In this document: positions 38,939 through 54,486 of the stretch, one piece after another | How positions within the stretch are numbered: position 1 is the first letter of the stretch | Layout of the letters: each line of letters begins with the position of its first letter | NCBI GenBank assembly: GCA_963742445.1 | Contig: CAVULV010000003.1 | Coordinates: 67,504-131,503, forward strand | Origin: an uncultured Acidimicrobiaceae bacterium | Lineage (GTDB): Bacteria; Actinomycetota; Acidimicrobiia; Acidimicrobiales; RAAP-2 | Direction: 5' to 3' | DNA length: 64,000 bases | Program-made: the position numbers and the translations under genes | The notes under the pieces: generated by a model | Database searches by the model: none | What the model was told of the DNA's origin: nothing | Seen by the model: the letters and a program-made list of their open reading frames with translations, nothing else

Positions 38939-39040
38939 CCGGTAGTGGTGAGGTGGGTTCGTGGGCTCTACAACCCGATGCGCTGCCATTCAAGCAGTCG
39001 GGCAACCGCACACGGTCCACCCAACGGGTCAACCGCACAC

Positions 39041-39094
39041 GGTCGGGCTGCCGGGATATGAACCCGGGACCTCTTGACCCCCAGTGCGCTAATC
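39041..39094 (-). repeat. tRNA-Pro(GGG) 3'-end copy 1 (degenerate; att-like)
   Basis: 'GGTCGGGCTGCCGGGATATGAACCCGGGACCTCTTGACCCCCAGT' followed by 'GCGCTAATC'. One mismatch and a 5-nt gap relative to the tRNA at 51795-51872. It does not fold as a tRNA. Confidence 0.8.
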
Positions 39095-39181
39095 GTTGCG
39101 GCGTCCCGTGGTCGCTGGTGGCGTTACGCCCGCTCACGGAGAGTCCGCCACCGCCCCTCAGCTCACCCCCCGGGTTTGTGA

Positions 39182-39478
39182 CGTTCGCCCCTGTCGTCGC
39201 CCAGCGGCATTGCGCCGCCGTGGTCAGGTGGCTTTGCGGGACTTCTCCACGGCGTTTTCGATGCTCTCGACGCCGCCCCGCCCAATGTGGGCCGCCATTT
39301 GGTGCAGCGCGTCAAAGTGTCCGAGGGGTGGGGTCAGATCCACCACGTCTACGTCTTCTCGGGCATCAGGTACCTCGAGGCCGGTGTCGGCCTCGAGCAG
39401 GCGATCCGCACGATCGTGGCCGGTGTCATGAGCGGCCGGCGCCTTGTCGTGAGGATCGTCTGGGCCGAACTGACCTGA
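39182..39478 (+). pseudogene. Small-protein paralogue of 39864-40130, apparently 5'-truncated
   Basis: 'LLHGVFDALDAAPPNV..VKVSEGWGQIHHVYVFSG..IRTIVAGVMSGRRLVVRIVWAEL' aligns by eye with the 88-aa ORF downstream. Confidence 0.35.
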
Positions 39479-39863
39479 TCCCTCAGCCGCCAGCTGCAGG
39501 CGACGGACTGCCGCGGGGCGCCGGCATGGACGGGCGGATGGATCTCGCCCTGTCGGGGACCACTGGTTCCGCGTGTGGGATTGCACTGACCACCTCGAAG
39601 GCCAGACGGGCTGCGCCAGTTCGGAGGCACCCGCCCCACCGCAGTCCCCACCTGTGACGCCCTGCCCGTGCACTCTTGCGATCTCCGCGAGAGCGGGCTC
39701 AAATGTCGGCCGCCACCGATGACCGATCGCCACATTCAGGGGGTGAGGTGGCCGGTTCAACCCTGTGCGTTCTCTCCGGGGTTGGGCCGCGAGCGTGGGC
39801 GCCGGAAATCGGATCTACGTCCCGACAACTACATCGCGGCCATGACATTCGGCTCTGGCCTCA

Positions 39864-40130
39864 TTGACCGAGATCGACCATCTTGGCATTGTGGTGCTCT
39901 CGGACCTGTCGGACACGGTCTACGGCGCCTTGAACGACGCACTTCCCGACCCTCACTCGGTCTGGCGCGTCGAAGTGTTCGAGGGTTGGGCCAGAATCCC
40001 CTTCGTCACCGTTTACGCCGGGATGAGCCGCAGCGCGGCCGGCGCCGCACTCGCCGAGAAGATTCATGCGGTCGTCGCCGGGGTCATGGATGGGCGCCGC
40101 CATGATGTCCGGATCATCTGGGCAATCTGA
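39864..40130 (+). CDS. Hypothetical 88-aa protein (VOC-like N-terminal motif 'IDHLGIVV')
   Basis: 'MTEIDHLGIVVLSDLSDTVYGALNDAL..VWRVEVFEGWARIPFVTVYAG..HAVVAGVMDGRRHDVRIIWAI'. A paralogue lies at 39182-39478. Confidence 0.4.
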   Translation: MTEIDHLGIVVLSDLSDTVYGALNDALPDPHSVWRVEVFEGWARIPFVTVYAGMSRSAAGAALAEKIHAVVAGVMDGRRHDVRIIWAI

Positions 40131-40256
40131 CATCCGTGGGCCGCTTGAACGTGCCCCGGTCTTCTCCAGGACCTTCCGACAGTCTCCGAATTGCGACCGA
40201 AAGCTCGACGGCCTTCTCCGAGTTCTCGTACAGACCAGGCTTCCCCCAGTCACTGA

Positions 40257-40299
40257 GTCGGGCTGCCGGGATTTGACCCGGGACCTCTTGACCCCCAGT
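40257..40299 (-). repeat. tRNA-Pro(GGG) 3'-end copy 2 (att-like)
   Basis: Same 43-mer with a 1-nt deletion (ATTTGA-CCCGGG). The right-hand flank is homologous to the flank of copy 1. Confidence 0.8.
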
Positions 40300-40428
40300 G
40301 CGGTTGGCGTTGTGGCGTCCTGTGATCGTTGGTGGCGTTGCGGCTGCTCACGTCACCTCCTGCCTGCTGCCCACTCCCCCGCTGTGGCGTCCTGTGGTGC
40401 CCCGTTGTCCCGGAGTCGGGTTGCAGGG

Positions 40429-40689
40429 ATGGTCGCACTCGGAGGGTGTGTAACTTTTTCACATGGCACTGAGAGGACCGTCGAACAGAAGATCTTCGAC
40501 ATCATGCAGGTATCCCTTGCTCCGACTGCCTTGGCGCTGGAGTCAGCCGTCAACGGATTGCAGGAGGCAGTCCGGGTGGGTAGTTCCGAGATCGCCGATG
40601 ATCCGGCCGTCGAGTTGCTCCAGGCTATTGCGGGCAGCCTCGTCGGATCGGTCATACAGTTGGCCAAGGAGGTCGACGGCCTGGAGTAG
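40429..40689 (+). CDS. Small hypothetical helical protein (61-87 aa depending on start)
   Basis: Tail of ORF 40066-40689: '..MQVSLAPTALALESAVNGLQEAVRVGSSEIADDPAVELLQAIAGSLVGSVIQLAKEVDGLE'. No family recognised. Confidence 0.3.
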   Translation: MVALGGCVTFSHGTERTVEQKIFDIMQVSLAPTALALESAVNGLQEAVRVGSSEIADDPAVELLQAIAGSLVGSVIQLAKEVDGLE

Positions 40690-40701
40690 CCCCAGGCATC
40701 C

Positions 40702-41151
40702 TCACGCCAAACTCCTCCGCAGGCCCCGGCGAACCCGTCCAGTCGTCCCGCCCCACACGCCCACGGTCGATGCCACTTCGAGGGCCGAGGCGAGGCACTC
40801 CGACCTCACGGAGCACTGTTCGCAGTAGCCAAGGCCTCGTCCGGGCGGTGAGTACCGGCGCTCGGGGAAGAAGAGCTCGGGGACGGCTCGCCTGCAGGCT
40901 GCTGACCGGTGCCACGCCGGCCGGTGGACGAGCTCGGCCCGGAGGTCCTCGACGTCGGGTGTCTCCCGGGATGCCATCAGCCATTCGACGGTGCGATCTT
41001 CAGCGAGCGCCGCCTCGGCCCGGGCCGCCTCGGCCCGGGCCGCCTCGAGCTCCGTCAGCATCGGGGTCTGGTAGGGCGTGGGTTCCTCATCGAGGAGGTC
41101 GACCATCGGCCTCTGAGGGTACGGCCGGGCAGTGGCGATCGGGTGGACCAT
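40702..41151 (-). CDS. WhiB-like (Wbl) Fe-S transcription factor with an N-terminal Ala/Glu-rich extension
   Basis: 'C-x23-CEQC-x5-C' cysteine pattern, the 'GVWGG' turn and a basic tail 'GRVRRGLRR' in ORF 40702-41364. It is the only apparently intact Wbl of three. Confidence 0.65.
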   Translation of the reverse strand: MVHPIATARPYPQRPMVDLLDEEPTPYQTPMLTELEAARAEAARAEAALAEDRTVEWLMASRETPDVEDLRAELVHRPAWHRSAACRRAVPELFFPERRYSPPGRGLGYCEQCSVRSECLASALEVASTVGVWGGTTGRVRRGLRRSLA

Positions 41152-41899
41152 CGTTGTCAATTCGTTGTGCCAGTCCAGTCCGGTCGGCTCTACCTCCGCT
41201 TCAGCGATGCTGCTGTTCTGATCTTGGGTGCAGATGACCGATGTGATCAGCCCGAGTTCTACCTCGCACCGTCCACATCGCTTTGGGTCACCCGAATCGA
41301 ACGCGGCCAGCCCTGGGCAACTGAGAGCCGGACCCAATAGGCGTCCCCGTCGAAGGAGATCCATGACACCGTAGGGGGTAATCCCTCGGGTCCAGATAGC
41401 GCGAGAAGATTGGACCGGTACTTCGGGTCCATTCGATAGCCGCCAATCGGGCGGTCAACTTCGGCGATGCAAGTACCACCAGCCCGACCCCGAGCCCGCC
41501 ACGACAACTTCGCCAGTCTCTTCACGGAACCTTCTTCCGGTTCGGCACCTCTGGTTACGAGTGTACGCCTTCAGCCCTACATGTCGGGCCCGGGAAGTTC
41601 TGAAGTGGGTGTCCCCGACCGCCGGGTTAGCGGCTCCATCAGGGTCACCAGTTCTCCATGTACTTCGATTGCACAACCGTCGAACAACGACGCTAGAAGC
41701 GAGTCTGACGTCAAGAGCCTCAAGGCGCCCCGGTTTGTGGTCGATATTGGTCTAGCAACGGCGCTGCACCTTAATCGCTGGATCGAATGCAACGCCGGAC
41801 GCTCGGGAGCGATGCCGGATGGTGGTTGAGGCAACAGACCATGTCTGGCGGATCGCATTGAGCTGACGCGGATTGGTTCCGTGGGAAGGAGGGTCCAAC

Positions 41900-42430
41900 A
41901 TGCAGTTCCGCCGTCGAGTACCACGCCAACCTGCCGGCTGGGACGGGGTTTGCCAGATCGAGGGCGAGTTCGCTGCCAAGTGCCGGGTCATCGACATCTC
42001 GATGCTAGGTCTGGGAATCACTCTAGAGCACCCCTCGCCGGCCGAGCTCGCCGGACGCCGCATTTCCGTCGATGTTCCAACGGTCACCGGTGACTCGTTC
42101 AGGATCCGACTCGATGGCACAATAGCGAACGCACAGACGACTCGCGGCACAGCTGTCCGGGTTGGCATCGAGTTCGGGCAACCCCACGAAGCCGGGCTTG
42201 GCACCACCATTCTCGAGAGCACGATGAGCGATGACAAGGACAATCTTGGAGCATCACTTCTCCCGCTTCAGGAGTGCTACTCGGCAGTTGCCCGTGAACG
42301 GGGATATGGCTACAAATCGGCACAAGACACCATGCTGCTGATAACTGAGGAGATTGGCGAACTGGCGCGGCAGAATCCTGGACAACGGCAGCGACTTTCT
42401 CCTACCTCGAAAACCTGCGCAGCCTCATAA
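41900..42430 (+). CDS. PilZ-domain protein continuing in-frame into a truncated MazG-like NTP-pyrophosphohydrolase segment
   Basis: SD 'GGAAGGAGGG' lies 7 nt upstream of the ATG. PilZ motifs 'RRRVPR' (RxxxR) and 'DISMLG' (DxSxxG). C-terminal 'LQECYSAVARERGYGY..LLITEEIGELAR' is MazG-like and stops early. Confidence 0.55.
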   Translation: MQFRRRVPRQPAGWDGVCQIEGEFAAKCRVIDISMLGLGITLEHPSPAELAGRRISVDVPTVTGDSFRIRLDGTIANAQTTRGTAVRVGIEFGQPHEAGLGTTILESTMSDDKDNLGASLLPLQECYSAVARERGYGYKSAQDTMLLITEEIGELARQNPGQRQRLSPTSKTCAAS

Positions 42431-42907
42431 GGAGGTGGACTGCAGACTCGGCTCGACGTGAGATGAGGGTTCGGACACCCAGGTGGCCGGAGCGCGCTGA
42501 AGCAATGAAGAAGCCGGCGGAGCGCGGAACATCTTGGTAGATCGATGACTGGAATCCCGCGAACTCCTGGCGGCGCCATTTGTTCTTCCCGTATCCGGCG
42601 AGGCATGTCAGCGGGAACGGCTTGACCCAGATTTGCCTCTGATTTCAGAAGGCCATGCCAGATCAGCGATCCTGTTTGATTGGGCCGCGAGGAACCTCTA
42701 GGTAATCTACTTCCACTGAGCAGTCGACCGACGTACGCACCGCCCCGCTGGACAGCGATGCAGCACGAGCCCTGCTTGAGCCATCGACCTGCCCCAGATC
42801 GCCGGGCTGGGGTGTCACTCTGCGGCGCAATTGCCTCGGGCTGCGTCCTTGTGAGCACGTCGGCGAGGCGACAACACGGCCTCTCATGGGCGACGTAGTT
42901 TGCTTCA

Positions 42908-43546
42908 GTGCCGCGGGCCAAGCTTGGGGTCATCGCGCTGGTGTGTCTGTACGCAACCGCGATTTTGGCTTGGATCGTTGCGCATGGCCGTTCGCCGTAC
43001 GGGTTTGAGGATCCGGCTATCAAATGGCTCGGGCCTCCTACTGCCATCAGAGGCTGGGCCGACCTCGCTGAACTCTTGGCCGCCCCGACCATCATTGCCG
43101 TCCTCGTCGTCACCTTCGGCGTCGGCCTGGCGAGGCGGGCGTCTGTTCGTGTCGTTTATTACGCTGCGCTCGCGGCATGGACTCTGCTCATTTGCGATCA
43201 CGGGATCAAGGCGCTGGTCCAAAGGACCTATTACGGCGAGCTCACCTTCCCCTCCGGCCACGTCACGGCCGTCAGCGCGACGGCGCTTGCCATGTGGCTG
43301 GCTCTCGGCCCACTGCTCGGCAGGCAACAACGCTACGTGACTCTCGTCCTTGGCGGGGCCTGGGTCCTCCTTATGTCGCTGGCAGTGGTCGGCGCGCACT
43401 GGCACACCCCACTCGACGCCATCGGGTCCGTGTTGCTGTCTGTTGGCGTCGTCACTGCAGGTGCGGCTGTCTTCGAACCCGTTGGGACTCCAGGACCCTG
43501 CGAGGCTATGGGGCGCGATCTATTTGGGGCACAGGGCGGCAAATAG
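42908..43546 (+). CDS. PAP2-superfamily membrane phosphatase
   Basis: Intact 212-aa ORF with 5-6 TM segments. Motifs 'KALVQR', 'PSGH' and 'HWHTPLD'. Confidence 0.7.
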   Translation: MPRAKLGVIALVCLYATAILAWIVAHGRSPYGFEDPAIKWLGPPTAIRGWADLAELLAAPTIIAVLVVTFGVGLARRASVRVVYYAALAAWTLLICDHGIKALVQRTYYGELTFPSGHVTAVSATALAMWLALGPLLGRQQRYVTLVLGGAWVLLMSLAVVGAHWHTPLDAIGSVLLSVGVVTAGAAVFEPVGTPGPCEAMGRDLFGAQGGK

Positions 43547-43640
43547 CTGTCCGATGTCGCACCGAGTTCCTCCCAAAAGAAGTGCCGCGATCGGCGCTTC
43601 CGTTCCCGGACGCAGTAGCCCCCTGAACTGCTGATTCTTC

Positions 43641-43683
43641 GTCGGGCTGCCGGGATTTGAACCCGGGACCTCTTGACCCCCAG
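43641..43683 (-). repeat. tRNA-Pro(GGG) 3'-end copy 3 (att-like)
   Basis: 43/43 match to tRNA positions 51797-51839. Confidence 0.85.
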
Positions 43684-43883
43684 GCGGGTCTGGGTCGTTG
43701 GGTCCTGCTTGGTGTCAGCGGGTTGTGCCGGGTCGACCCAGGTTTCCCCGTTCGTTAGGTTGGGTGGTGTTTCGTTAGGTTGGGTGGTGTTGGGGGCAGT
43801 TTGGGGACACTTTGCGAAGTTGCGTTGACAAATCCGTTGACACCGCCGATCTGGGCACCGAGGTGGAGGTGTGTCAGCGGTAG

Positions 43884-44192
43884 TCAGAAGGGCGCCTCGC
43901 CGACACCTTGGAGGTGCCCGCTCGCATCGGTGCGCACACCTTGAACGCGGCGACCGTTGTTCACCAGTCGCAGCTCGAACGTTGTGAGCTGGAGGGTTCG
44001 CAGGTCCTCTTCGTTGAGGCCGTCGATGACCCCACCCCACGAGACCCGCCGCTCGATTGTGCCGCCGCGCCCGTCAGGCCTCTCGACCTTTTGCATCTCC
44101 GCGTCCCGGTTGGTGAGCTGCACGTGCACATCGAACCGCCTGCCACCGACCACGATCGTTGCAGCGCCGTTGTAGCTCGGCTCACTCATCAC
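43884..44192 (-). CDS. Hypothetical 102-aa protein (DUF4873-like pattern, tentative)
   Basis: 'MMSEPSYNGAATIVVGGRRFDVHVQLTNRD..SWGGVIDG..'. An identical copy lies at 47991-48299. Confidence 0.5.
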   Translation of the reverse strand: MMSEPSYNGAATIVVGGRRFDVHVQLTNRDAEMQKVERPDGRGGTIERRVSWGGVIDGLNEEDLRTLQLTTFELRLVNNGRRVQGVRTDASGHLQGVGEAPF

Positions 44193-44254
44193 CGTCTGCT
44201 CCTTCGCTCACGGCTGTTACGAAGGCACGGTAGGCCAGACGAGCACCCCTCACA

Positions 44255-44409
44255 TCACGCCACCCCACGCCTCAGGCCCCGGCGAACCCGTCCCGTCGCC
44301 CCTCCCCCACACCCCACGGTCGACGCCACCTCGAGGGCTGAGGCGAGGCACTCCGCCTTCACCGGACACCCGGGGCAGTAGGCCAGGGCCTCGACGTATC
44401 TAAAAATCA
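44255..44409 (-). pseudogene. WhiB-like gene remnant (C-terminal ~45 aa) truncated by att copy 4
   Basis: 'ALAYCPGCPVKAECLASALEVASTVGCGGGATGRVRRGLRR'. The upstream part is replaced by the tRNA 3'-end repeat. Confidence 0.6.
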
Positions 44410-44452
44410 GTCGGGCTGCCGGGATTTGAACCCGGGAGCTCTTGACCCCCAG
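44410..44452 (-). repeat. tRNA-Pro(GGG) 3'-end copy 4 (att-like)
   Basis: 43-mer with one mismatch (44438 G for C). Confidence 0.85.
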
Positions 44453-44746
44453 GCACTTCTGAGTCCATTTTCGGGTCAATCGCTGATCTGCGAGCTTATG
44501 CAAACTCTCTGTTCGGAGCTCTTATGGTCACACCCAACAGGCGGCTGGCGGTCCAGAGGCTCTATGGTCTTTCGATGAGCGATGCCCCTGGAGCGCTGCG
44601 GACATGTCCGGCGTGCGGTGCGTGAGTCGGACCGTCGTCCTCAGTTCTCGAGGGGCGGAGTTGCTCGTCGTCGACGGGCACGATGCGGTTGTTCTGGTGC
44701 CTCGTCGGTAAACCCACGTCGGAGCGCTGTCGGACGGCCTGATCGA

Positions 44747-47506
44747 ATGAGGCGAGCCCTGATCATTGTGGTGGGTGCGCTGGTCGCAGCCGGACTTCCT
44801 GTCTTCGCTGTTACGGCACATTCGCAACCGGCGGCCGCCGAGACGTCGAGCCCCTACGCGTTGGTCTCGGTGTCCGGGAGCCCCCTCGGTAACGTCAGCG
44901 CAGCCTCCCCCTACGGCTTGAGCCCGGCGTTCTCCCCATCGACCACCGATTACGTTCTCCGCTGCAACGACGGGAGGAACCAGGTTGTGCTCACGCTGAC
45001 CGGGAACGGTGGTCCCGTCTCCGTGGGAACAAATCAGCAGAGCTCGCATGACTCCGGAGCGTCCGTTAACGTGACACTCACCGTGGTCCCGAACCAGGCG
45101 ATTGTGGTGTATGCGCCGAACCCCTCGAACCCCGGGACCACCCCAGACCAGTACTGGATCCGCTGTCTGCCCCCCAATTTCCCCGCGATACAGGTGAACA
45201 AGGCCGGACCCTCGTCCCCCGGCTGGACCCCGGGCTACTACTTCACGGGGACCTTTCCGTTGGGCCAACAACCCTATGCCATGGTGCTCGACGGGAACGG
45301 CATCCCCGTGTGGTTCCAGGGCATCGCGTCGAACCTCGGCGCTGCCTTCAACGTGGAGCCCCTCCCCAACAACACCATTGCCTGGTCGCCCAGTCTCGGC
45401 CCCGGGATTGGTGCGGGGGACAACGGGAATGCGTACACCGGATTCGACCTGGCGACCCAGAGCACCATCGACCCGCTCCCTGCCGCGGTGTCGCCGACAG
45501 ACGAACACGAACTCTGGCCACTGCCCAACGGGGACCGGCTGATGATCTCGTCGCCCGTCGTCTCGAGTGTCGACCTGTCGACCCTCGGGGACGGCATGCT
45601 CTCCTCCGGAAGCACAACTCCTTCGTCTGCGGCGGACGGCAACGCCGTCGACTGCGTGGTGCAGGAGGTGAACCCGGACAACCAGGCCGTCTGGTCCTGG
45701 GACGCCTCGCAACACATCGGGGTCGGCGAGGTCAACACAGTGAGCAATCCCGGCCCTCCCTGGATCCTCGACACCCTGAACGGAAGCCCGGCGGCCGATA
45801 TCTACCACTGCAACTCCGTGTCCATGGACGAGGACACCGCGAGTCCATACCACGGGGACGTCCTGGTCTCCATGCGGCACCTCAACGCTGTCTTCCTCAT
45901 CGACCCGTCCTCGGGCGACGTGATCTGGAAGCTGGGGGGGACACCGCTCACGCCGGGCGATCCCGAGGAGGGACAGGGGTCGCCGGCCCAGTACCTCGCC
46001 ATCACGGGTGACGGCGAGTCCGGTATCTGCGGTCAGCACGACGCGCGGTTCGTCGCGACGCCCGACCCGGCGGTCGAGGACGTGAGCGTGTTCGACGACC
46101 ACTCCAAATGCCTCGGCCCCGCCCGCGGGATTGAGTTCGCCGTGGACACCGCCGCAGGCACCGCCACTCCCGACTACCAGTACGCGCAGCCCCAGGGGCA
46201 ATCAGTGTCGGCCATGGGCAGCTTTCGCCGGATGCCCGACGCCAATAATGACATCGGTTCCGGCAGCAGCCTGACCGACTGGGGCCTCACCAGCGGAACG
46301 AACCTGTCCGGCTTCACCGAAGTCGACAGCGGCGGCAACATCCTGGTCGACGTCACCTTCCCGTCCCTCGAGTACCTGTACCGGGCGATCAAGGTCGATG
46401 CGAGTCAAGTCAATCTGCCCTTGCTCAGGCAGACAGCCGGTTGGACGGGTGCGACGATCCCTCCTCCGCCTTCAATGCCGCAGGTGACGGGCGTGAGCCC
46501 TTCGAGCGGGCTCACGGAAGGTGGGACCTCGGTAACCATCACCGGATCGGGATTCGTCGGCGCCAGCTCCGTGACGTTCGGAGGTCACCAAGCGGCGTTT
46601 GGCGTCACGGCGACAGGCACCATCGTGGCCACCGCCCCTGGGGGCGTGGGAGGCGCCGTCGACGTGGTCGTGACCGCCCCCGGTGGGACGTCTGCGCCGC
46701 GCGCTGCAGACCAGTTCACCTACGCCGACCAGTTCACCTACGTTGCGCCGTCACCACCCGAAATCGTGGGCACGGCCCCCACCCCTGACGGCGGGGGCTA
46801 CTGGCTGGTGGCCTCCGACGGGCGGGTCTTCCCCTTCGGCGACGCCGGGTTCTACGGATCGGCCAGCAATCAGGCGCTCAACGCACCCATCGTCGGGATG
46901 GTGCCCACCCCCAGCGGCAACGGCTACTGGCTGGTGGCCTCCGACGGTGGGATCTTCAACTACGGGGACGCCAGGTTCTTCGGCTCACGCGGCGGTCAGC
47001 CGCTCAACAAGCCGGTGGTCGGGATCGCCGCCTCGACCGACGGTGGGGGCTACTGGCTGGTGGCCTCCGACGGTGGGATCTTCAACTACGGGGACGCCAG
47101 GTTCTTCGGCTCACGCGGCGGTCAGCCGCTCAACAAGCCGGTGGTCGGGATCGCCGCCTCGACCGACGGTGGGGGCTACTGGCTGGTGGCCTCCGACGGT
47201 GGGATCTTCAACTACGGGGACGCCAGGTTCTTCGGCTCACGCGGCGGTCAGCCGCTCAACAAGCCGGTGGTCGGGATCGCCGCCTCGACCGACGGTGGGG
47301 GCTACTGGCTGGTGGCCTCCGACGGTGGGATCTTCAACTACGGGGACGCCAGGTTCTTCGGCTCACGCGGCGGTCAGCCGCTCAACAAGCCGGTGGTCGG
47401 GATCGCCGCCTCGACCGACGGTGGGGGCTACTGGCTGGTGGCCTCCGACGGTGGGATCTTCAACTACGGCAGTTCCGACTTCGAGGGGTCGGTCATGGGC
47501 GGCTGA
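44747..47506 (+). CDS. Secreted protein: arylsulfotransferase (ASST)-like beta-propeller region, one IPT/TIG domain and six '[24 protein letters not shown]' repeats
   Basis: Intact ORF. Signal peptide 'MRRALIIVVGALVAAGLPVFAVTAHS'. ASST-like 'DIYHCNSVSMD..GDVLVSMRHLNAVFLIDPSSGDVIWKLGG..GQHDARF'. IPT 'VTGVSPSSGLTEGGTSVTITGSGF'. Repeats at the C-terminus. Confidence 0.75.
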   Translation: MRRALIIVVGALVAAGLPVFAVTAHSQPAAAETSSPYALVSVSGSPLGNVSAASPYGLSPAFSPSTTDYVLRCNDGRNQVVLTLTGNGGPVSVGTNQQSSHDSGASVNVTLTVVPNQAIVVYAPNPSNPGTTPDQYWIRCLPPNFPAIQVNKAGPSSPGWTPGYYFTGTFPLGQQPYAMVLDGNGIPVWFQGIASNLGAAFNVEPLPNNTIAWSPSLGPGIGAGDNGNAYTGFDLATQSTIDPLPAAVSPTDEHELWPLPNGDRLMISSPVVSSVDLSTLGDGMLSSGSTTPSSAADGNAVDCVVQEVNPDNQAVWSWDASQHIGVGEVNTVSNPGPPWILDTLNGSPAADIYHCNSVSMDEDTASPYHGDVLVSMRHLNAVFLIDPSSGDVIWKLGGTPLTPGDPEEGQGSPAQYLAITGDGESGICGQHDARFVATPDPAVEDVSVFDDHSKCLGPARGIEFAVDTAAGTATPDYQYAQPQGQSVSAMGSFRRMPDANNDIGSGSSLTDWGLTSGTNLSGFTEVDSGGNILVDVTFPSLEYLYRAIKVDASQVNLPLLRQTAGWTGATIPPPPSMPQVTGVSPSSGLTEGGTSVTITGSGFVGASSVTFGGHQAAFGVTATGTIVATAPGGVGGAVDVVVTAPGGTSAPRAADQFTYADQFTYVAPSPPEIVGTAPTPDGGGYWLVASDGRVFPFGDAGFYGSASNQALNAPIVGMVPTPSGNGYWLVASDGGIFNYGDARFFGSRGGQPLNKPVVGIAASTDGGGYWLVASDGGIFNYGDARFFGSRGGQPLNKPVVGIAASTDGGGYWLVASDGGIFNYGDARFFGSRGGQPLNKPVVGIAASTDGGGYWLVASDGGIFNYGDARFFGSRGGQPLNKPVVGIAASTDGGGYWLVASDGGIFNYGSSDFEGSVMGG
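46922..47469 (+). repeat. 126-bp in-frame tandem repeat, about 4.3 nucleotide-identical copies (42 aa each)
   Basis: The unit 'GGCTACTGGCTGGTGGCCTCCGACGGTGGGATCTTCAACTACGG..' starts at 46922, 47048, 47174, 47300 and 47426. I saw no differences between units. Confidence 0.9.
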
Positions 47507-47599
47507 CACAAGGCGTACGCCGTCCGCAAACGTGCCCGGCGAGTTGCTCAACCGGCTCTTCGGATTTCAGCGGGGAGCTGACCCGCTGAGCCGCTCAAC

Positions 47600-47765
47600 C
47601 GGCAGCGCTGTTGGACCAACCTCGAGTTGGGCGGGCCATCGCCGGGTACATCGAGCACTTCTGCGACCCGGCCCGGTCACAGCGCCCTCGGGCTACCTGA
47701 CCCGAATGATTTCGAAGACCTACACTCACCCCAACCGGAGGCCACCAGTCGGGGTCAAGCGCATT
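47600..47765 (+). pseudogene. IS3-family transposase (OrfB) 3'-terminal remnant, frameshifted
   Basis: Composite of three frames: 'GRAIAGYIEHFCDPAR / HSALG / YLT..NDFE', matching the conserved OrfB tail 'YIExFYNxxRxHSALGYxxPxxFE'. It abuts att copy 5. Confidence 0.55.
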
Positions 47766-47810
47766 TGGTCGGGCTGCCGGGATTTGAACCCGGGACCTCT
47801 TGACCCCCAG
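47766..47810 (-). repeat. tRNA-Pro(GGG) 3'-end copy 5 (att-like)
   Basis: 45/45 match to 51795-51839, including the encoded CCA. Confidence 0.9.
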
Positions 47811-47990
47811 GCGGGTCTGGGTCGTTGGGTCCTGCTTGGTGTCAGCGGGTTGTGCCAGGTCGACCCAGGTTTCCCCGTTCGTTAGGTTGGGTGGTGTTGG
47901 GGGCAGTTTGGGGACACTTTGCGAAGTTGCGTTGACAAATCCGTTGACACCGCCGATCTGGGCACCGAGGTGGAGGTGTGTCAGCGGTAG

Positions 47991-48299
47991 TCAGAAGGGC
48001 GCCTCGCCGACACCTTGGAGGTGCCCGCTCGCATCGGTGCGCACACCTTGAACGCGGCGACCGTTGTTCACCAGTCGCAGCTCGAACGTTGTGAGCTGGA
48101 GGGTTCGCAGGTCCTCTTCGTTGAGGCCGTCGATGACCCCACCCCACGAGACCCGCCGCTCGATTGTGCCGCCGCGCCCGTCAGGCCTCTCGACCTTTTG
48201 CATCTCCGCGTCCCGGTTGGTGAGCTGCACGTGCACATCGAACCGCCTGCCACCGACCACGATCGTTGCAGCGCCGTTGTAGCTCGGCTCACTCATCAC
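47991..48299 (-). CDS. Hypothetical 102-aa protein, identical copy of 43884-44192
   Basis: The translated ORF is identical in the track. Confidence 0.5.
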   Translation of the reverse strand: MMSEPSYNGAATIVVGGRRFDVHVQLTNRDAEMQKVERPDGRGGTIERRVSWGGVIDGLNEEDLRTLQLTTFELRLVNNGRRVQGVRTDASGHLQGVGEAPF

Positions 48300-48361
48300 C
48301 GTCTGCTCCTTCGCTCACGGCTGTTACGAAGGCACGGTAGGCCAGACGAGCACCCCTCACA

Positions 48362-48699
48362 TCACGCCACCCCACGCCTCAGGCCCCGGCGAACCCGTCC
48401 CGTCGCCCCTCCCCCACACCCCACGGTCGACGCCACCTCGAGGGCTGAGGCGAGGCACTGCGGCCGCACCGAGCAGCTCTCGCAGTAGGCCAGCGCCTGC
48501 TCAGGTGCCAAGTGGGCCGGTTCACAAGGTCGGCCAGGAGTAGCTCCACGTCGGGCGCGTCCTCCGACGCCATTAGCGAGTCGAGCGCGACCTGGCGTGC
48601 CAGCACGCCGGCCCGGGCCTCCTCGAGCTCCGTCAATGTCGGAGGCTGGTCGGGCGTGGGCTCCTCGTCGAGATTCTCCAGCCACTCCAGGACGGTCAC
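48362..48699 (-). pseudogene. WhiB-like gene, frameshifted and lacking the first Cys region
   Basis: 'MTVLEWLENLDEEPTPDQPPTLTELEEARA..LVNRPTWH' (ORF 48379-48699), then in another frame 'PEQALAYCESCSVRPQCLASALEVASTVGCGGG..'. The segment equivalent to 'AACRRAVPELFFPE' in the 40702 copy is absent. Confidence 0.6.
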
Positions 48700-49013
48700 C
48701 GGCTACAACGGTACGGCCGGCATTGACGCGCGGGCAGACCCGACCCCGGCAACGTATCAGGAGGCCTCGGTGCGGGTCACTATCTCAGGTCACCGAGACC
48801 GCCTGCGCAAAGCCGGTCAGGGGGGTGAAGGTGGCCGGCTCAACCCTGTGTTCTCTACCGGGGTTGGGCCGCGCCGGGGGAGCTGTGGCGGTCTACCGTC
48901 ACGCCAATGGATCGGATGCCCCAGCCCGGCGACCCCTAGCCCAGGTCCTTCGTCGCCGTACGGCGTGCACTACTACAGGTCCGCAGTCTTGGAAGGTCAC
49001 GCCGCAGAGGTAG

Positions 49014-49349
49014 CTATGCAGCGCGCCGGAAATCCCTCTTCTCGACCCCCCGGCGCGTGGAACTCGACCCCTCGGGCACGGTCACAGATCGGGCGCCGGC
49101 GGCGACCGCCGCACGGTAGGTGCGCTCAAGCTGAGCCCTGCGGCCTTCCCAGGAGCGTCGGCACCTACGACAAACGATCCGAAGCCAATCGGCGGCGATC
49201 ACGGGATACCCCCAGCGGCACCGGCTCCAACCCAACGCGACTAGGTCGACATCCCCATTCCCGAGTGAACCCGCCAAGGCAAGGCGGGCACCGCAGGAGC
49301 AGCGCACCGTTCGAGGGTCTCGGTATCTGGACCGCCTCCATCGTGCCAT
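49014..49349 (-). CDS. Hypothetical Cys/Arg-rich small protein (weak call)
   Basis: 'MARWRRSRYRDPRTVRCSCGARL..WLRIVCRRCRRSWEGRRAQLERTY' within ORF 49014-49487. No RBS and no family recognised. Confidence 0.2.
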   Translation of the reverse strand: MARWRRSRYRDPRTVRCSCGARLALAGSLGNGDVDLVALGWSRCRWGYPVIAADWLRIVCRRCRRSWEGRRAQLERTYRAAVAAGARSVTVPEGSSSTRRGVEKRDFRRAA

Positions 49350-49376
49350 CGAAACAACATTAGTGTAGTTTCCTCC

Positions 49377-49619
49377 GTGGATAGCGGCATGACGATGCCC
49401 CGCCCCCGTGACGTGTCCCCCGGCTTCATGGCCAAGCCGGGCCGCTGTTGGCGAATGGTCTACAGCCACCAGCTGCAAGCCACGCACTGCACCGAGGTGC
49501 CGTCATGGACGGGCCGGTGGTTCCCGCCGAGAGGTGACCGGTGGTTCCGCGTGTGGGCTTGCGCCGACCACCCCGAGGGACTGACCGGCATGCGGCAGTT
49601 TGGCGGCGTCCGTCGCTAA
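49377..49619 (+). CDS. Hypothetical 80-aa Cys/Trp-rich protein
   Basis: '..GRCWRMVYSHQLQATHCTEVPSWTGRWFPPRGDRWFRVWACADHPEGLTG..'. High third-position G+C supports coding. No family recognised. Confidence 0.35.
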   Translation: MDSGMTMPRPRDVSPGFMAKPGRCWRMVYSHQLQATHCTEVPSWTGRWFPPRGDRWFRVWACADHPEGLTGMRQFGGVRR

Positions 49620-49922
49620 GGATCTGCCGTCCTGGCGCCTATCCCCGTACGAATCAGGCACTTTCGGGCTATCAGTCTCCGATGAGGTTATTGGCGCACC
49701 GTTCCGTCCCCTCTCGTCCCACAGCTCTTTCAGCTCAGTGGGTTCGCGAGGATCTGATAGGAACCCGAACTGGTTGACAGAGCAGGTAGGCTTTGTCGAC
49801 GCCTCATCCTCCTCTTGGTCGGCGACTTCAACCTCGAAGATGGCAGCATCGAGGACCGCGACCGCAGTGTGAGCGGCATCGCATTGTGTGTGCAGCATCT
49901 CGATCTTCTTCGCCGCGTTCAC
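49503..49922 (-). CDS. Hypothetical acidic protein; the 3' part overlaps 49377-49619 and is probably not all coding
   Basis: 'MNAAKKIEMLHTQCDAAHTAVAVLDAAIFEVEVADQEEDE..'. The GTG start lies directly beside the CTGACAG repeat array. Confidence 0.3.
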   Translation of the reverse strand: MNAAKKIEMLHTQCDAAHTAVAVLDAAIFEVEVADQEEDEASTKPTCSVNQFGFLSDPREPTELKELWDERGRNGAPITSSETDSPKVPDSYGDRRQDGRSLATDAAKLPHAGQSLGVVGASPHAEPPVTSRREPPARP

Positions 49923-49990
49923 TGACAGCGTTCACTGACAGCCACTGACAGAGCCACTGACAGACCTGTCAGACCTGTCAGACCTGTCAG
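49920..49990. repeat. Inverted iteron array: 4 x CACTGACAG followed by 3 x ACCTGTCAG
   Basis: CACTGACAG at 49920, 49933, 49943 and 49955. ACCTGTCAG at 49964, 49973 and 49982 (contiguous). CTGACAG and CTGTCAG are reverse complements. Confidence 0.85.
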
Positions 49991-49995
49991 ACCGT

Positions 49996-51703
49996 TGTCA
50001 AGACCCGGTACCCGCTTGACGTTTTGACTCCGGTACCTGCTTGACACCCAAACCCTCAGGCCACATTGGCCTTACGGGGCCGACCCTGGGGAGTAGCGAA
50101 GGCGCCGTGCTCCTTGGAGCGGTCGTGATGGATGGCGTGGACCCTGAGGACCTTGCCCTTGGCCGAGATCTGGACCGAGCCGGCCACGATGGCCACTTCG
50201 ACGACCTGGCGGGCCCAGCTGCGTCCGACCCGATAGCCGGTCCCGGCGAAGGAGACCGAGCCGCCCTGGTCCACCCGGCGGGTGACGGTCATGCCTGAGG
50301 TGGGTGGTCGGGAGCGCCCCGAGCGTGGGGCACGTTGGGGCCGAGATCCTTTGTCCGCTCGGCGTCGCTCGGCGTGGGTGGCGACGAGGACGCCGGCATG
50401 GAGGATCTCGACGAGCCCTGCGCGCACCACGACCTCGACGGATTCCCCCGCGAAGGTCGCCCCCACCCGATAACGGAAACTCCCGAGGCCGATCGAGCCG
50501 CGCTGGTCGACCCAGCGGTTCACGCCGGGTGGTCGTTCACTCAGAGGAACCTCCTCGATGACTTCTGGCATCTCGGGGTCGGCGGGTCGGGCTGGGGCCA
50601 GTGCGAAGCGCTCGGCGGGCGGGCGATCACCCAATGACTGGTGCGGACGCTTCGTGTTGTACTCGCTCACCCACTCGTCGAGGGCGCGCTGGAGCGCCTC
50701 GATGCTCGGATGCACCCAGTCGTGGTCGACCAAGAAGTCCGAGCGCATGGTCTTGTGGAATCTCTCGACCTTGCCTGTCGTGGTCGGCGAATACGGGGCG
50801 GTGAGCAAATGGCGGATCCCGTTGTTGGTGCAGATCCGGTCGAAGAGCACCGGTCCGGGCCCTTGGCCGAAGCGAGCAGTGAAGACCTTGCCATTGTCGG
50901 TGAGGATCTGGTCGGGCACGCCATGGGTGCGCAGCGCCCACTGGAGGGCCTCGCACACCGGTCTGGCTGTCGCCCGGGCAACCACCCGAGCGCAGACGCA
51001 GAACCGTGAGTGGTCATCGACACCGGTGACGACTTTGACCTCGGTGCCGTCGGCAAGATGGAAGCGGCCGACGATGTCCATCTGCCACAGCTCCATGGAG
51101 CGAGACCGCTCCCATCGCTTGTAGTCAGAGCGGGCGCGCTTGCGTGGGGTGGGCTCGAGCAGGTGGTGACGAACCAAGGTGCGATAGATGGACGAGCGTC
51201 CGGGCACCGGAGTGAAGCCGTCTTTGGCGAGTTCGGTGCGGATGGAGCGTGGTCCCCAGCGCGGGTGCGCCCGGCGCAGCTCGACCACCCTGGCCTCGAT
51301 GACCGGGGCCATCTGGTGCGGACAGCGCTCGGGCCTCGAGCTCTTGTCGGCCAGGGCGGCCATGCCGCCGTTGGCATAGCGGCGCAGCCACGTGTGGACG
51401 CTCTGGCGGCTCACCCCGTTGCGCTGGGCCACGTCGGTCACGCTCATCCCGTCGAGGACGTCGATCACCGCTCGATAGCGCTGTTCCACCAGCTTGAGCT
51501 CCACCAACACGGTCGGCCTCCTTCGCATCCGTCGACAGCTGCGTCAACAGCGAAGAAGGTGGCAACCGCCACGCGGTGGACCCTCCAGGCACGAAGTGTC
51601 AAGCAGGTACCGGAGCCAGTGTCGCCCAGGTACCGGAGCCGCGTCCGAAAGTGTCAGGCAGGAACCGGAGCCACGCCGTCAAGCATGAACCGGAATTCAC
51701 ACA
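49996..51703 (-). mobile_element. IS481-like insertion sequence (1,708 bp) with TGT-ended imperfect ~25-bp IRs and a 14-bp flanking direct repeat
   Basis: IRL 'TGTCAAGACCCGGTACCCGCTTGAC' (49996-50020). IRR reverse complement 'TGTGTGAATTCCGGTTCATGCTTGAC' (51678-51703). Flanking 'ACCTGTCAGACCGT' at 49982-49995 and 51704-51717. Inner exact inverted repeat GGTACCTGCTTGACAC (50032-50047 / 51597-51612). Confidence 0.75.
50056..51528 (-). CDS. DDE transposase (HTH, rve integrase-core, Mu-transposase-C-like tail)
   Basis: Intact 490-aa ORF: 'WQMDIV..GVDDHSRF' (D), 'ILTDNGKVFT' (D), 'PYSPTTTGKVERFH' (E) and N-terminal HTH 'MSVTDVAQRNGVSRQSVHTWLRRY'. Confidence 0.85.
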   Translation of the reverse strand: MRRRPTVLVELKLVEQRYRAVIDVLDGMSVTDVAQRNGVSRQSVHTWLRRYANGGMAALADKSSRPERCPHQMAPVIEARVVELRRAHPRWGPRSIRTELAKDGFTPVPGRSSIYRTLVRHHLLEPTPRKRARSDYKRWERSRSMELWQMDIVGRFHLADGTEVKVVTGVDDHSRFCVCARVVARATARPVCEALQWALRTHGVPDQILTDNGKVFTARFGQGPGPVLFDRICTNNGIRHLLTAPYSPTTTGKVERFHKTMRSDFLVDHDWVHPSIEALQRALDEWVSEYNTKRPHQSLGDRPPAERFALAPARPADPEMPEVIEEVPLSERPPGVNRWVDQRGSIGLGSFRYRVGATFAGESVEVVVRAGLVEILHAGVLVATHAERRRADKGSRPQRAPRSGRSRPPTSGMTVTRRVDQGGSVSFAGTGYRVGRSWARQVVEVAIVAGSVQISAKGKVLRVHAIHHDRSKEHGAFATPQGRPRKANVA

Positions 51704-51794
51704 ACCTGTCAGACCGTCCGTTGACAAACGGTTGACATGGAACATGGCCGGGCGACGCCCACCGCAATACGCGATCGCCTGACCAGCACCTTCA

Positions 51795-51872
51795 TGGTCG
51801 GGCTGCCGGGATTTGAACCCGGGACCTCTTGACCCCCAGTCAAGCGCGCTAACCAAGCTGCGCCACAGCCCG
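51795..51872 (-). tRNA. tRNA-Pro (anticodon GGG), CCA encoded
   Basis: Reverse complement: CGGGCTG-TG-GCGC-AGCTTGGTTA-GCGC-G-CTTGA-CTGGGGG-TCAAG-AGGTC-CCGGG-TTCAAAT-CCCGG-CAGCCCG-A-CCA. This gives a full cloverleaf with anticodon loop C-U-GGG-G-G. Confidence 0.9.
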
Positions 51873-52023
51873 TGCGCCGTGTCCAGTCCGGCTCGGCTGG
51901 GTTCACCGGGCCACCGGCAGGCCGGCAGTGCCGGGCCTGGAACGACTCGAAGATGGTACCCGACCGCCGGGACAGCAAGGATTCGGCGAGCGACTCGCTA
52001 CACGGTTGTGCTCGAATGAGGTC

Positions 52024-53047
52024 ATGGCCATGGATATTGCGACCGACCTCCGCCTGGACCCCCGCCTCCGCGGCATCCTCGAAGTCATCCCGGACATCCC
52101 GCTCACGAACGTGGAGAGCCGGGAGCAGACTGATCGCCGAGGCCAACTCGCCCGAAGCGGTCGCCGGGCGGGAAGCGTTTCGGGCCTTCCAGGATCTCTG
52201 CGACGAGGCCGCACCGAGCGGCCTCGAGGTGACGATCGCGGAGTTCGTCTCGCAGCCCGACGGCAACTCCGTCAACCTGCAGATCATCCGGCCCCCTTCC
52301 GACGTCCCGCTGGCCTGCGTGTACTACATCCACGGCGGCGGTATGGCGACCCAGTCCTGCTTCGACGGGATGTACCGCGGCTGGGGGAAGCACATCGCCG
52401 CCAACGGCGTTGCCGTCGTCATGGTGGACTTCCGCAACTCCATCGTGGCCTCTTCTGCCCCCGAGGTGGCGCCCTTTCCCGCCGGACTCAACGACTGTGT
52501 CTCCGGACTGCACTGGGTGGCCGCCCACGCGGAGGAACTCAACGTCGATCGCGCCAGGATCGTCGTCGCGGGCGAGAGCGGTGGCGGAAACCTCACGCTG
52601 GCGACCGGGCTCAAGCTCAAGCGAGACGGTGACCTTGGTCTCATCAAGGGCCTCTACGCACTTTGCCCCTATATCGCGGGGCATTGGCCGACGCCCGAGT
52701 GCCCCTCATCGACCGAGAACGAGGGCATCCTGTTGCATCTCCACAACAACCGGGGCCGCATCGGTTACGGCATCGAGGCGTTCAACGAACGGAACCCTCT
52801 GGCCTGGCCGTCGTTCGCGGGCGTCGACGACGTCATGGGCCTCCCACCGACCGTGATCAACGTCAACGAGTGTGACCCGCTGCGTGACGAGGGGATCAAC
52901 TTCTACCGCTTACTCATGTCCGCCGGGGTCCAGGCCCGTTGCCGCCAGGTGATGGGAACGATGCACGGCACCGAGGTCTTCGCCATCGCGTGCCCCGACA
53001 TCAGCCGTGATACGGCGCGGGATATCGCCGGATTCACACGCGATTAG
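52024..53047 (+). CDS. Esterase/lipase, alpha/beta-hydrolase fold-3 (HSL family); 1 frame break near 52125
   Basis: 'YIHGGGMA' (HGGG oxyanion), 'VAGESGGGNL' (GxSxG), 'ECDPLRDEG' and 'GTMHG'. The N-terminus is in ORF 51928-52632. Confidence 0.75.
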
Positions 53048-53056
53048 GCGGGTCCC

Positions 53057-54474
53057 GTGCCGGTATTCCGGCGTCGGATCCCGCTACGCTCACCCGCCGT
53101 GTCCACCGACCCCTCCCACCTTCGCCCTGCACCTGCGCGCGCTCCTGACCCTGGCAGCCTCCGGGGTGCTCCTGGCCTCCTCACTTCGAGCTCCGGGTCG
53201 GCGGCGGCGACTTCGAGGGTCTCCCGTGCGGCCCTCCCGCCCGGGAAGATCAGCCACATCCTCGTGATCGAACTCGAGAACGAGGGGTATGCGGCCACCT
53301 TCGGCGCCGGCTCGCCCGCCACGTACCTGAACGGGGCGCTCCGCAGCAAGGGTGAACTGTTGCAGAACTACTACGCAACCGGTCACGCCAGCTTGGACAA
53401 CTACATCGCCCAGGTCTCCGGGCAGGCGCCGACGCTGGACACGCAGGCGGACTGTGCCGACAACGGGTTCGCCTTTGCGGACGTGGCACCCGGCACCCCC
53501 GACGCCGACCAGGCCGCGAACCCCGGGCAGGTCGACGGTCAGGGATGTGTCTACCCCACCTCCGTCGCGACGATCGCCTCGCAGCTCGACGCCAAGTACG
53601 CCCCGAACAAGACGACGCACGTCGCGGCCTGGCGGGCCTATGAGCAGGACATGGGCAACACGCCCTCGCGTGACGGTGGCACAGCGGACGCCAGCGGTGG
53701 CACGGATTGCGGGCATCCGGCCATCGGCACCACGGACACGGCCGAGGTGGCCACGCCGGCCGACCAGTACACCACGCGGCACGACCCGTTCGTCTGGTTC
53801 CATTCCGTGATCGACAACACGGCGGAGTGCAACTGCCAACGTGGTTCCGCTCGGCACGTTGGGCAGCAACGGACTCCCTTCGCCCTCGGGCCATCTGGCG
53901 AAGGATCTTCACAGCGAGAGCACCACGCCGCGGTTCGGCTTCATCACTCCGAATCTCTGCAACGACGGACACGACGCGACCTGCGCCGGTCCCAACAGCA
54001 CCGGCGGTCACGTCGGGGGCCTCACCGGGGCCGACCAGTTCCTGCACGCCTGGATGCCCCTGATCCTCGGCTCACCCGCCTACAAGCACGGCGACATGCT
54101 CGTGGTCGTCACCTTCGACGAGGCCGACCTCGGCGGACCGACCGCCGACGTCGCCTGCTGTAACGAGGCTTCGGGACCCAACACCCACGCACCTGGCAAT
54201 GCCGGGGCGTCGACGGACAGCGCCGCACCCGGCGGAGGCCAGGTCGGTGCAGTGCTGCTCAGCGCCAAGTACATCAAGCCCGGTTCGACCGACACGACTG
54301 GTTCGTACAACCACTATTCGGCATTGCGGAGCTACGAGGACCTCCTCGGACTGACCACTGGGGGCACCGACGGTCAGGGACACCTCGGCTACGCCGCGCG
54401 CCAAGGGACTGGTTCCCTTCGGGACCGATGTCTTCCCCGCCAAGCTCAGCGGAGCGACCAAGAGCACGCCCTAG
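53057..54474 (+). CDS. Secreted phosphoesterase-family protein (AcpA / phospholipase C-like, PF04185-type); about 2-3 frame breaks
   Basis: 'ILVIELENEGYAATFG', 'NYYATGHASLDNYIAQVSG', 'ITPNLCNDGHD' and 'VVVTFDEAD'. The 3' end 'VPFGTDVFPAKLSGATKSTP*' is in a third frame. Confidence 0.65.
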
Positions 54475-54486
54475 AGATCCGAGCGG

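Follow-up and report, generated by a model that had tools for sequence, protein, structure and literature searches.

How did a gene for a probably secreted arylsulfotransferase (ASST)-like protein come to lie between two copies of a tRNA gene end in the genome of an uncultured Acidimicrobiaceae bacterium, and what might its product do? The gene, at 44747-47506, is part of a stretch of 64,000 nucleotides of contig CAVULV010000003.1 (positions 67,504 to 131,503), hereafter called the window, whose DNA is rich in GC (70-78 %) with a stretch of lower GC at approximately 28-55 kb. The locus is probably a decayed integration hot spot at tRNA-Pro(GGG), with the ASST gene as the only intact cargo of the remnant between the fourth and fifth attachment (att) copies and with an exported four-part enzyme of the ASST type as its product. 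Decayed modules at a tRNA gene are a kind of island already known, and so is the enzyme type, of which the protein is an architectural variant.

The att unit corresponds to the 3' 43 nt of tRNA-Pro(GGG), from the anticodon loop to the 3' end, and recurs at five further sites in the same orientation. Five exact or near-exact 43-nt matches were found versus 0 expected in shuffles, and the sixth copy carries an indel. The tRNA gene and the copies are given below; L086 stands for ERZ25039517:contig_20266, the sole close relative available, which was reached through a homologue search with a 102-aa open reading frame (ORF) of the array.

51795-51872, minus strand: tRNA-Pro(GGG), the integration target and the sole tRNA found in the window (tRNA scan)
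39042-39084, minus strand: att copy 1, 1 mismatch, outermost of the array and adjoining the PMT_2 gene (43-nt match)
40257-40299, minus strand: att copy 2, containing a 1-nt deletion (43-nt match with indel)
43641-43683, minus strand: att copy 3, 0 mismatches, left end of a 4,127-bp unit absent from L086 (43-nt match, L086 alignment)
44410-44452, minus strand: att copy 4, 1 mismatch, GGGAGCTC (43-nt match)
47768-47810, minus strand: att copy 5, 0 mismatches (43-nt match)

The initial annotation of this DNA had described the gene as framed by two tRNA-derived att copies, and this was borne out, since both 44410-44452 and 47768-47810 match the 3' 43 nt of tRNA-Pro(GGG). The inner flank of att copy 4 (44453 onward) resembles no other module. 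What had not been noticed earlier is a near-identical direct repeat of ~700 bp that flanks the ASST gene and extends well beyond the att sequence:

43641-44353: direct repeat copy A, consisting of att, the 102-aa ORF and the 3' end of a WhiB-like gene (self-comparison)
47768-48460: direct repeat copy B, continuing into a module common with L086 (self-comparison, L086 alignment)
43884-44192, minus strand: the 102-aa ORF of copy A, with a weak DUF4873-like match (ORF call, Pfam)
44258-44395, minus strand: remaining 3' part of a WhiB-like gene, truncated 14 bp short of att copy 4 (Pfam, junction alignment)
48365-48685, minus strand: WhiB-like gene of the tRNA-proximal module (Pfam)

Only 2 of 693 positions distinguish copy A from copy B, apart from a 20-bp tandem duplication (TCGTTAGGTTGGGTGGTGTT) at 43752-43791, which is present in copy A only and is absent from copy B and from L086. 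The last ~40 bp of the WhiB fragment (44354-44395) represent an allele different from that in copy B and in L086.

The contig L086, in reverse orientation, aligns with the window at 93-96 % identity from the PMT_2 gene to past the esterase gene and has its own tRNA-Pro(GGG). The aligned segments are as follows:

Window 36975-40351 corresponds to L086 16500-13128
Window 41121-42705 corresponds to L086 13127-11548
Window 42710-44391 corresponds to L086 11459-9800
Window 47768-49865 corresponds to L086 10529-8424
Window 51797-55341 corresponds to L086 4286-745

One segment comprising att, the 102-aa ORF and WhiB is present in L086, in comparison to two in the window (43641-44353 and 47768-48460), and window positions 44354-47767, including the ASST gene, are missing from L086. 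At the junctions, copy B runs on like L086, copy A switches at 44354 to ~40 bp of the other WhiB allele followed by 14 unrelated bases and att copy 4, and the left flank of att copy 5 is the tail of an insertion sequence (IS); one junction falls exactly at an att copy. Counted in the att3-to-att5 register, the variable unit comprises 4,127 bp and includes the duplicated ~700-bp segment. The 3.3-kb block between att copies 4 and 5, which the initial annotation had taken as the varying unit, is therefore too short. The expectation that the block would vary among relatives was confirmed, as it is absent from the ~96 % identical L086 and not conserved at the locus. Being missing from a close relative, the gene is a variable accessory gene.

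Deletion between the ~700-bp direct repeats would yield exactly the structure of L086. It is possible, though somewhat unlikely, that the gene is ancestral at this site, that the 4,127-bp unit was deleted from L086 when its flanking repeats recombined and that gene conversion accounts for the near-identity of the repeats. The identity of copies A and B ends abruptly at 44353/44354, where the sequence passes into the other WhiB allele as at the end of a conversion tract, and the codon composition of the gene fits the host. More distant homologues combining ASST, TIG and the repeats (L001, 10001-22291; L088, 9912-13808), located ~2 kb from a tRNA-Arg(CCT) gene, also adjoin an AftD/GT4/GT2/FkbM cluster resembling the one at 28-39 kb of the window; this co-location may reflect a link to envelope glycan genes. 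Against an ancestral position, the gene lies between att copies, accompanied by an IS remnant and by an inner flank peculiar to its module, which argues that it arrived by integration at some time, and its closest homologues sit in other contexts. A recent event is needed either way, since copies A and B, nearly identical to one another, are each ~4 % different from L086; their near-identity shows only that the duplication or conversion is recent.

The initial annotation had also set the unbroken frame of the gene against the frame breaks of most core genes in the window. The homologues of FkbM methyltransferase, GT4 and AftD (28110-34192) do change frame, at ~28260, 29045, 29761 and 31103-31128, but the contrast carries little weight. 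Over ~13 kb the window is separated from L086 by ~80 indels, almost all of a single base, some of which fall within conserved genes and att copies, and an integrase gene in L086 is likewise frame-broken. The frame breaks in the neighbouring genes look like consensus errors of long reads rather than pseudogenisation. With indels of this number and kind, little can be learned about selection from a single uninterrupted ORF of 2.8 kb, and the status of 'intact among broken genes' was rejected as a sign of it.

The imperfect consensus quality seen in these indels and in the frame shifts of neighbouring genes also bears on the structure itself. The repeats could be an assembly artefact, in which reads of two strains were joined at the shared sequence of att and the 102-aa ORF, and the array of 126-bp repeats at the end of the ASST gene was mis-resolved. 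The junctions do coincide with repeated sequence, and the exact proteins of the window are not on record in public collections, where neither the protein (queried in its 919-aa and 974-aa versions) nor the 102-aa ORF had an exact entry. Such an origin is nevertheless very improbable: copy A has its own 20-bp tandem duplication and a WhiB allele unique in the window, which a mis-join of identical repeats would not make, the ORF is of full length with six blades as in its homologues and no frame error, and repeats of 0.7 and 0.55 kb are short versus typical long reads.

Transposase-related features of the array are as follows:

47583-47740, plus strand: degenerate C-terminal tail of an IS3-type OrfB transposase, ending a few bases before att copy 5 (tblastn versus plasmids)
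49941-51705, minus strand: 1,765-bp insertion absent from L086, with an rve/Mu-transposase-C-type transposase gene at 50059-51543 (Pfam, L086 alignment)

The IS3 tail announced by the initial annotation was found again as the C-terminus of OrfB, although it is readable only after two frame corrections. When the spliced peptide of 59 aa was searched against plasmids by tblastn, it matched the C-termini of actinobacterial OrfB proteins (E=1e-6, 45-52 % identity), one of them an intact OrfB at L087 685-1668; no Pfam match was obtained, and tblastn with three rve transposases of the data set also gave nothing. The remnant covers ~54 residues of an OrfB-like C-terminus and is a fragment rather than an insertion sequence. 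The transposase of the 1,765-bp insertion has 495 aa with a helix-turn-helix, an rve and a Mu-transposase C-terminal domain, and several copies of CCGGTACCTGCTTGAC lie at both ends of 49941-51705, like multiple transposase-binding sites. As the agent of tRNA targeting it was rejected, because the insertion is absent from L086, where a tyrosine integrase is present instead.

This integrase, encoded at L086 4400-5560 beside the tRNA-Pro gene (L086 4211-4286), contains several frame changes; single fragments gave weak Pfam matches, and the composite matched PF00589 with E=9.5e-22. It opens a 3.7-kb module (L086 4287-8022) missing from the window; no other recombinase was seen for this att family. 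No integrase homologue was detected in the 64-kb window (tblastn with the L086 integrase, E>3; Pfam and PHROGs scans of the array), so the block cannot move on its own.

The arrangement would be explained if small tyrosine-integrase elements had been stacked successively at the tRNA-Pro(GGG) gene of an Acidimicrobiaceae-like genome and had then decayed. The outcome of such accretion would be the six same-oriented 43-bp att copies separating integrase-less remnants, similar to cis-mobilizable elements (CIMEs). In the remnant between att copies 4 and 5 the integrase-proximal side would have been taken by the truncated IS3-type transposase, and this remnant together with the neighbouring 0.7-kb remnant would form the 4,127-bp unit. 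Because near-identical direct repeats (att plus ~650 bp) enclose the unit, its gain or loss as a circle is possible by two routes. It might leave or enter through site-specific recombination between att copies, catalysed by the integrase of another element, or through ordinary homologous recombination across the ~700-bp repeat.

Tyrosine integrases of the AICE type (from actinomycete integrative and conjugative elements) insert at tRNA gene 3' ends, Pro-tRNA among them, tandem AICE insertions leave ~44-bp att sites, and an island of S. coelicolor is flanked by a 43-bp repeat in Pro-tRNA (PMC2440964). CIMEs are decayed, att-flanked elements devoid of integrase, for which an accretion model has been put forward (PMC5704250). 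The window resembles these islands in that same-oriented copies of a tRNA 3' end separate modules lacking integration genes, in that a tyrosine integrase lies beside the tRNA gene in the relative L086, and in that whole modules differ between close relatives. It differs in the very small size of the modules (0.7-4 kb) and in the lack of AICE-type replication and transfer genes; integration, replication and FtsK-like transfer modules of the pSAM2 type were not detected between 39 and 52 kb by Pfam or PHROGs. A further difference is the ~700 bp of ordinary homology at the ends of the variable unit, and the case made here consists of presence or absence with an att junction, from which mobilisation is deduced.

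The gene itself starts with ATG at 44747, its stop codon ends at 47506, and the reading frame is unbroken over 919 codons, in agreement with the earlier description of an intact gene (there given as 920 aa). Homologues of 907-932 aa align with the protein over its entire length. Its parts are listed below.

44747-47506, plus strand: intact gene for a probably secreted ASST-like multidomain protein of 919 aa (ORF call, Pfam, end-to-end homologue alignment)
44747-44839, plus strand: signal-peptide-like N-terminus MRRALIIVVGALVAAGLPVFAVTAHSQPAAA (read from sequence; a helix followed by a low-confidence segment in the AlphaFold2 model)
44849-45169, plus strand: N-terminal all-beta domain, aa ~35-141, predicted beta-sandwich (AlphaFold2 model, homologue annotation)
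45182-46411, plus strand: ASST beta-propeller, aa ~146-555, carrying H354, N356, R377 and H431 (Pfam, profile alignment, AlphaFold2, Foldseek)
46478-46723, plus strand: IPT/TIG domain, aa 578-659 (Pfam)
46709-46744, plus strand: 18-bp in-frame tandem duplication at the last strand of the TIG domain (direct reading)
46763-47503, plus strand: six 42-aa repeats of 126 bp each, predicted six-bladed beta-propeller (Tandem Repeats Finder, AlphaFold2, Foldseek)
46922-47469, plus strand: perfect 126-bp periodicity over 4.35 units with zero mismatches, homogenised inner blades (direct reading)

The N-terminus is shaped like a Sec signal peptide, and the protein is probably exported through Sec. In the Pfam scan the protein matched PF14269 with E=4.1e-16 (59.7 bits, cut-off 27), PF05935 with E=6.9e-11 (42.2 bits, cut-off 24.2) and the IPT/TIG family PF01833 with E=2.8e-13 (50.1 bits, cut-off 20.9), the latter over model positions 1-84 of 84; the NCBIfam scan gave no further relevant match. 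The two ASST families thus score about twice their curated cut-offs, and the identification as ASST put forward in the initial annotation was confirmed, as were the IPT/TIG domain, the six repeats and the 18-bp duplication, which were all reproduced by Pfam, repeat finding and direct reading. The assignment of the whole N-terminal ~520 aa to ASST was too wide: the ASST propeller is real, but the first ~140 residues form the signal peptide and a beta-sandwich in the model, and the latter region is annotated as PF12733 (cadherin-like) in some homologues. The 18-bp duplication consists of GACCAGTTCACCTACGCC followed by GACCAGTTCACCTACGTT, encodes ADQFTY twice and was not seen in those homologues whose C-terminal ends were printed. 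A promoter and terminator scan of 44300-47900 gave nothing above chance.

Is the N-terminal propeller then an active sulfotransferase? An AlphaFold2 model of aa 1-575 (pLDDT 86, pTM 0.87) contained an N-terminal helix, an all-beta domain at ~35-141 and a large all-beta domain, and in AlphaFold2 and Foldseek analyses a six-bladed propeller follows a beta-sandwich, as in 3ELQ and 9KF4. Foldseek placed the Cpz4 structures 9KF6 and 9KF4 first (E=2.8e-20 and 7.5e-19), followed by nine chains of E. coli ASST (E ~1e-14). The same 9KF4/9KF6 entries were the best solved sequence relatives. With a profile built from 24 homologues, the match to Cpz4 (9KF4) extended across the entire propeller (E=9e-40), and 3ELQ of E. 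coli ASST was reached with E=3e-5. In E. coli ASST the sulfuryl group is carried by His436 in a ping-pong mechanism and coordinated by His356, Asn358 and Arg374 (PMC13426309). The profile alignment pairs H356, N358, R374 and H436 of that enzyme with H354, N356, R377 and H431 of the 919-aa protein, all contained in the motifs quoted in the initial annotation; H431 sits within GQHDARF, opposite the catalytic His436. Among the 24 homologues H354, N356 and H431 are invariant and R377 is kept in at least 90 %. The alignment with 3ELQ spans only chain residues 356-493, and no tool aligned equivalents of His252 and Thr501; the invariant H254 may be the counterpart of His252. Judged by score of the hidden Markov models (HMMs), predicted fold and active-site residues, the protein is a bona fide member of the ASST family, and its catalytic activity is likely.

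Cpz4, from caprazamycin biosynthesis in Streptomyces sp. MK730-62F2, is the closest by both sequence and fold; both proteins are actinobacterial and share the H-x-N, S-x-R and Q-H-D motifs. The donors used by Cpz4 are p-nitrophenyl sulfate (pNPS) or 4-methylumbelliferyl sulfate (MUS), and its preferred acceptor is a sugar hydroxyl (PMC13426309). Cpz4 is however a single-domain protein of 472 aa belonging to an antibiotic pathway, whereas the window protein is encoded outside any biosynthetic cluster, adds a signal peptide, an N-terminal beta-sandwich, TIG and a second propeller, and is only 23-24 % identical. The ASST of E. coli CFT073 (3ELQ, 3ETS, 3ETT) is extracytoplasmic, as the window protein would be according to its N-terminal sequence, and its six-bladed propeller is preceded by an N-terminal beta-sandwich (PMC13426309), as in the AlphaFold2 model of the window protein; its His436, His356, Asn358 and Arg374 have aligned counterparts. 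The differences are an identity of 14-15 %, the lack of TIG and of a C-terminal propeller in the E. coli enzyme, and the higher score of the window protein on PF14269 than on PF05935.

These low identities, the two E. coli residues left unaligned, the lack of a gene for sulfate-donor synthesis adjoining 44747-47506 and the fact that natural substrates are not known for most ASST enzymes (PMC13426309) leave room for another function, namely that the propeller acts here as a binding domain or catalyses some other reaction on a cell-envelope or environmental polymer. This is unlikely, because the catalytic histidine and three sulfate-coordinating residues are present and conserved to the degree given above, the HMM scores are about double the cut-offs, and the closest solved structures are all sulfotransferases.

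The pairing of an ASST-like propeller with the repeats had been thought undescribed, which did not stand. At least 10 public Acidimicrobiales proteins of 907-932 aa share its Pfam content and are 61-75 % identical to it over 99-100 % of its length. The pairing is thus not unique, and many further public proteins combine ASST and the repeats without TIG; all appear to be uncharacterised. The flanking DNA was compared with the homologue loci L001-L005, and homology stops at the ends of the coding sequence. A scan of a genome collection with the full protein was dominated by the repeat module, yielding at least 595 stretches and one full-length ASST locus (L005). The metagenome scan with the N-terminal 575 aa returned one locus, L088, which has no att copy, and the scan with a 23-mer from the junction of att copy 4 and its inner flank gave 0 matches.

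For the six C-terminal repeats, Tandem Repeats Finder reported a period of 126 with 5.4 copies and 92 % matches, and units 3, 4 and 5 of the window gene are identical at the DNA level; across the family the blades are 70-100 % identical to one another. No repeat family of Pfam or NCBIfam (WD40, Kelch, NHL, RCC1, PQQ, tectonin and others) matched aa 665-919 at E<=0.1, and a sequence search of PDB with the repeats gave best matches with E=0.03 and 0.26, that is, no sequence relative. The AlphaFold2 model of the module, built on 14 sequences (pLDDT 63, pTM 0.64), has three strands per 42-aa unit. In the Foldseek search with this model all 50 top matches listed were beta-propellers (probability 1.00, query-normalised TM 0.6-0.67), and among them were the Nostoc propeller 2YMU and designed symmetric (WRAP) propellers. 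The six 42-aa repeats are thus predicted to form a six-bladed beta-propeller.

Propellers homogenised in this manner have been described before (PMC9218822). An example of a highly repetitive, recently amplified propeller is 2YMU, the WRAP domain of Nostoc punctiforme, and the blades here likewise resemble one another closely, to the degree given above. The module differs from it in having six 42-residue blades, in serving as a C-terminal module on diverse secreted proteins, and in blades that match no Pfam propeller family and have no better PDB sequence match than the one given above.

A profile search against 1.84 billion cluster representatives yielded 20,552 proteins at E<=1e-3, of which 10,958 also passed E<=1e-30. 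The 83 loci fetched come nearly all from metagenome-assembled genomes of Acidimicrobiaceae/Acidimicrobiales, and in these loci four to six repeats were detected in each of 104 ORFs on the match strand, the final repeat mostly beginning at most ~40 residues before the protein end. The N-terminal partners of the module are diverse extracytoplasmic domains and include PQQ_2, TIG, NHL, SGL, the kumamolisin pro-domain, GH43, Big_1/invasin, PKD and fn3. Such a constant C-terminal part, shared by secreted proteins that are otherwise unrelated, would fit an anchoring or targeting role. From this domain architecture, the propeller most likely binds a glycan of the cell envelope or of the substrate and positions the enzyme.

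Further 42-aa-repeat genes occur in the window, at 3159-3790 (plus strand), with frame changes between the repeats, and at 25770-26055 (minus strand). The latter repeats end an open frame of 927 codons (25294-28077) that has no Pfam match and adjoins the glycan-synthesis cluster.

Taken in order, the product of the ASST gene would be exported by a Sec-type signal peptide and would consist of a beta-sandwich, the ASST propeller, an IPT/TIG spacer and the C-terminal propeller. With an aryl sulfate as donor, a sulfuryl group would pass via a sulfo-histidine on H431 to the hydroxyl of an acceptor, independently of 3'-phosphoadenosine-5'-phosphosulfate (PAPS), while the propeller of 42-residue blades would bind the glycan of the envelope or substrate and hold the enzyme in position. 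A bolder version, speculative and more doubtful than not by a wide margin, holds that an undescribed surface-display or glycan-binding module tethers a Cpz4-like enzyme that sulfates, outside the cell, a glycan of the envelope or of the environment with aryl sulfates, and that the tRNA-Pro array is a cassette-like platform shuffling surface genes among strains with an integrase provided in trans.

Several observations weigh against the hot-spot reading and the proposed role of the product. The recent horizontal delivery claimed in the initial annotation agrees with the position of the gene within the att array and with its absence from L086, but with one relative gain and loss are not distinguished. 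The block carries no integrase, excisionase or transfer gene, and its mobility is deduced from the repeats and the comparison with L086. The window and L086 are both assemblies of the long-read type with many 1-bp indels, and the repeat structure is known from the assembly alone. The closest homologues, L003 and L004 (75 % and 74 %), are located in ordinary chromosomal contexts of Acidimicrobiales with neither a tRNA nor an att copy nearby. The GC content at third codon positions (GC3) of the gene is 0.83-0.85 versus 0.82-0.87 in neighbouring chromosomal genes, and a foreign origin on the grounds of composition was rejected for this equality. Composition, homologue contexts and the confinement of homology to the coding sequence together do not favour a distant foreign origin. 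On the side of the protein, the model of the C-terminal propeller is of moderate confidence, the binding role comes from the logic of domain architecture, and the limited knowledge of natural ASST substrates mentioned above counts here as well.

If active, the protein would be an exported, possibly surface-tethered, PAPS-independent sulfotransferase of an uncultured soil actinobacterial lineage, encoded by a strain-variable accessory gene. It would then bear on the handling of aryl-sulfate esters or the modification of glycans by soil bacteria, and ASST enzymes are sought as biocatalysts. The locus is a clear small-scale case in which near-identical genomes differ by the accretion and loss of modules without integrase at a tRNA gene. 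The C-terminal propeller represents a very large domain family that is a mark of many secreted proteins in the clade and is matched by neither Pfam nor NCBIfam, and learning its ligand would annotate thousands of proteins at once. The precise presence/absence comparison with L086 and the recognition of this module are the most useful by-products of the analysis.

The remaining small genes of the array were also searched, and Pfam and PHROGs suggested no function for the small ORFs of the modules beyond WhiB. The duplicated 102-aa ORF (43884-44192 and 47991-48299) has a good coding signature (GC3 0.81) and 14 homologues at 69-100 % identity in public metagenomes; P0121 is 100 % identical to it and is not placed on any contig. 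The contigs L084 and L085, found through a homologue of this ORF, share that gene only, in small islands with IS elements and with neither tRNA nor att, and a scan of viral contigs with the ORF found no relatives.

A further difference from L086 lies in the left part of the array, where window 40352-41120 (~770 bp) is absent from the relative. This segment covers the 3' two-thirds of a WhiB-like ORF (40702-41364), including the WhiB domain, and downstream sequence; the WhiB domain of this ORF shows similarity elsewhere in L086. Finally, a segment of ~150-240 bp without a Pfam or PHROGs match is common to three modules (39484-39628, 49418-49655 and L086 6203-6439) and encodes a Cys/His/Trp-rich peptide (...GDRWFRVWxCxDHxEG...).

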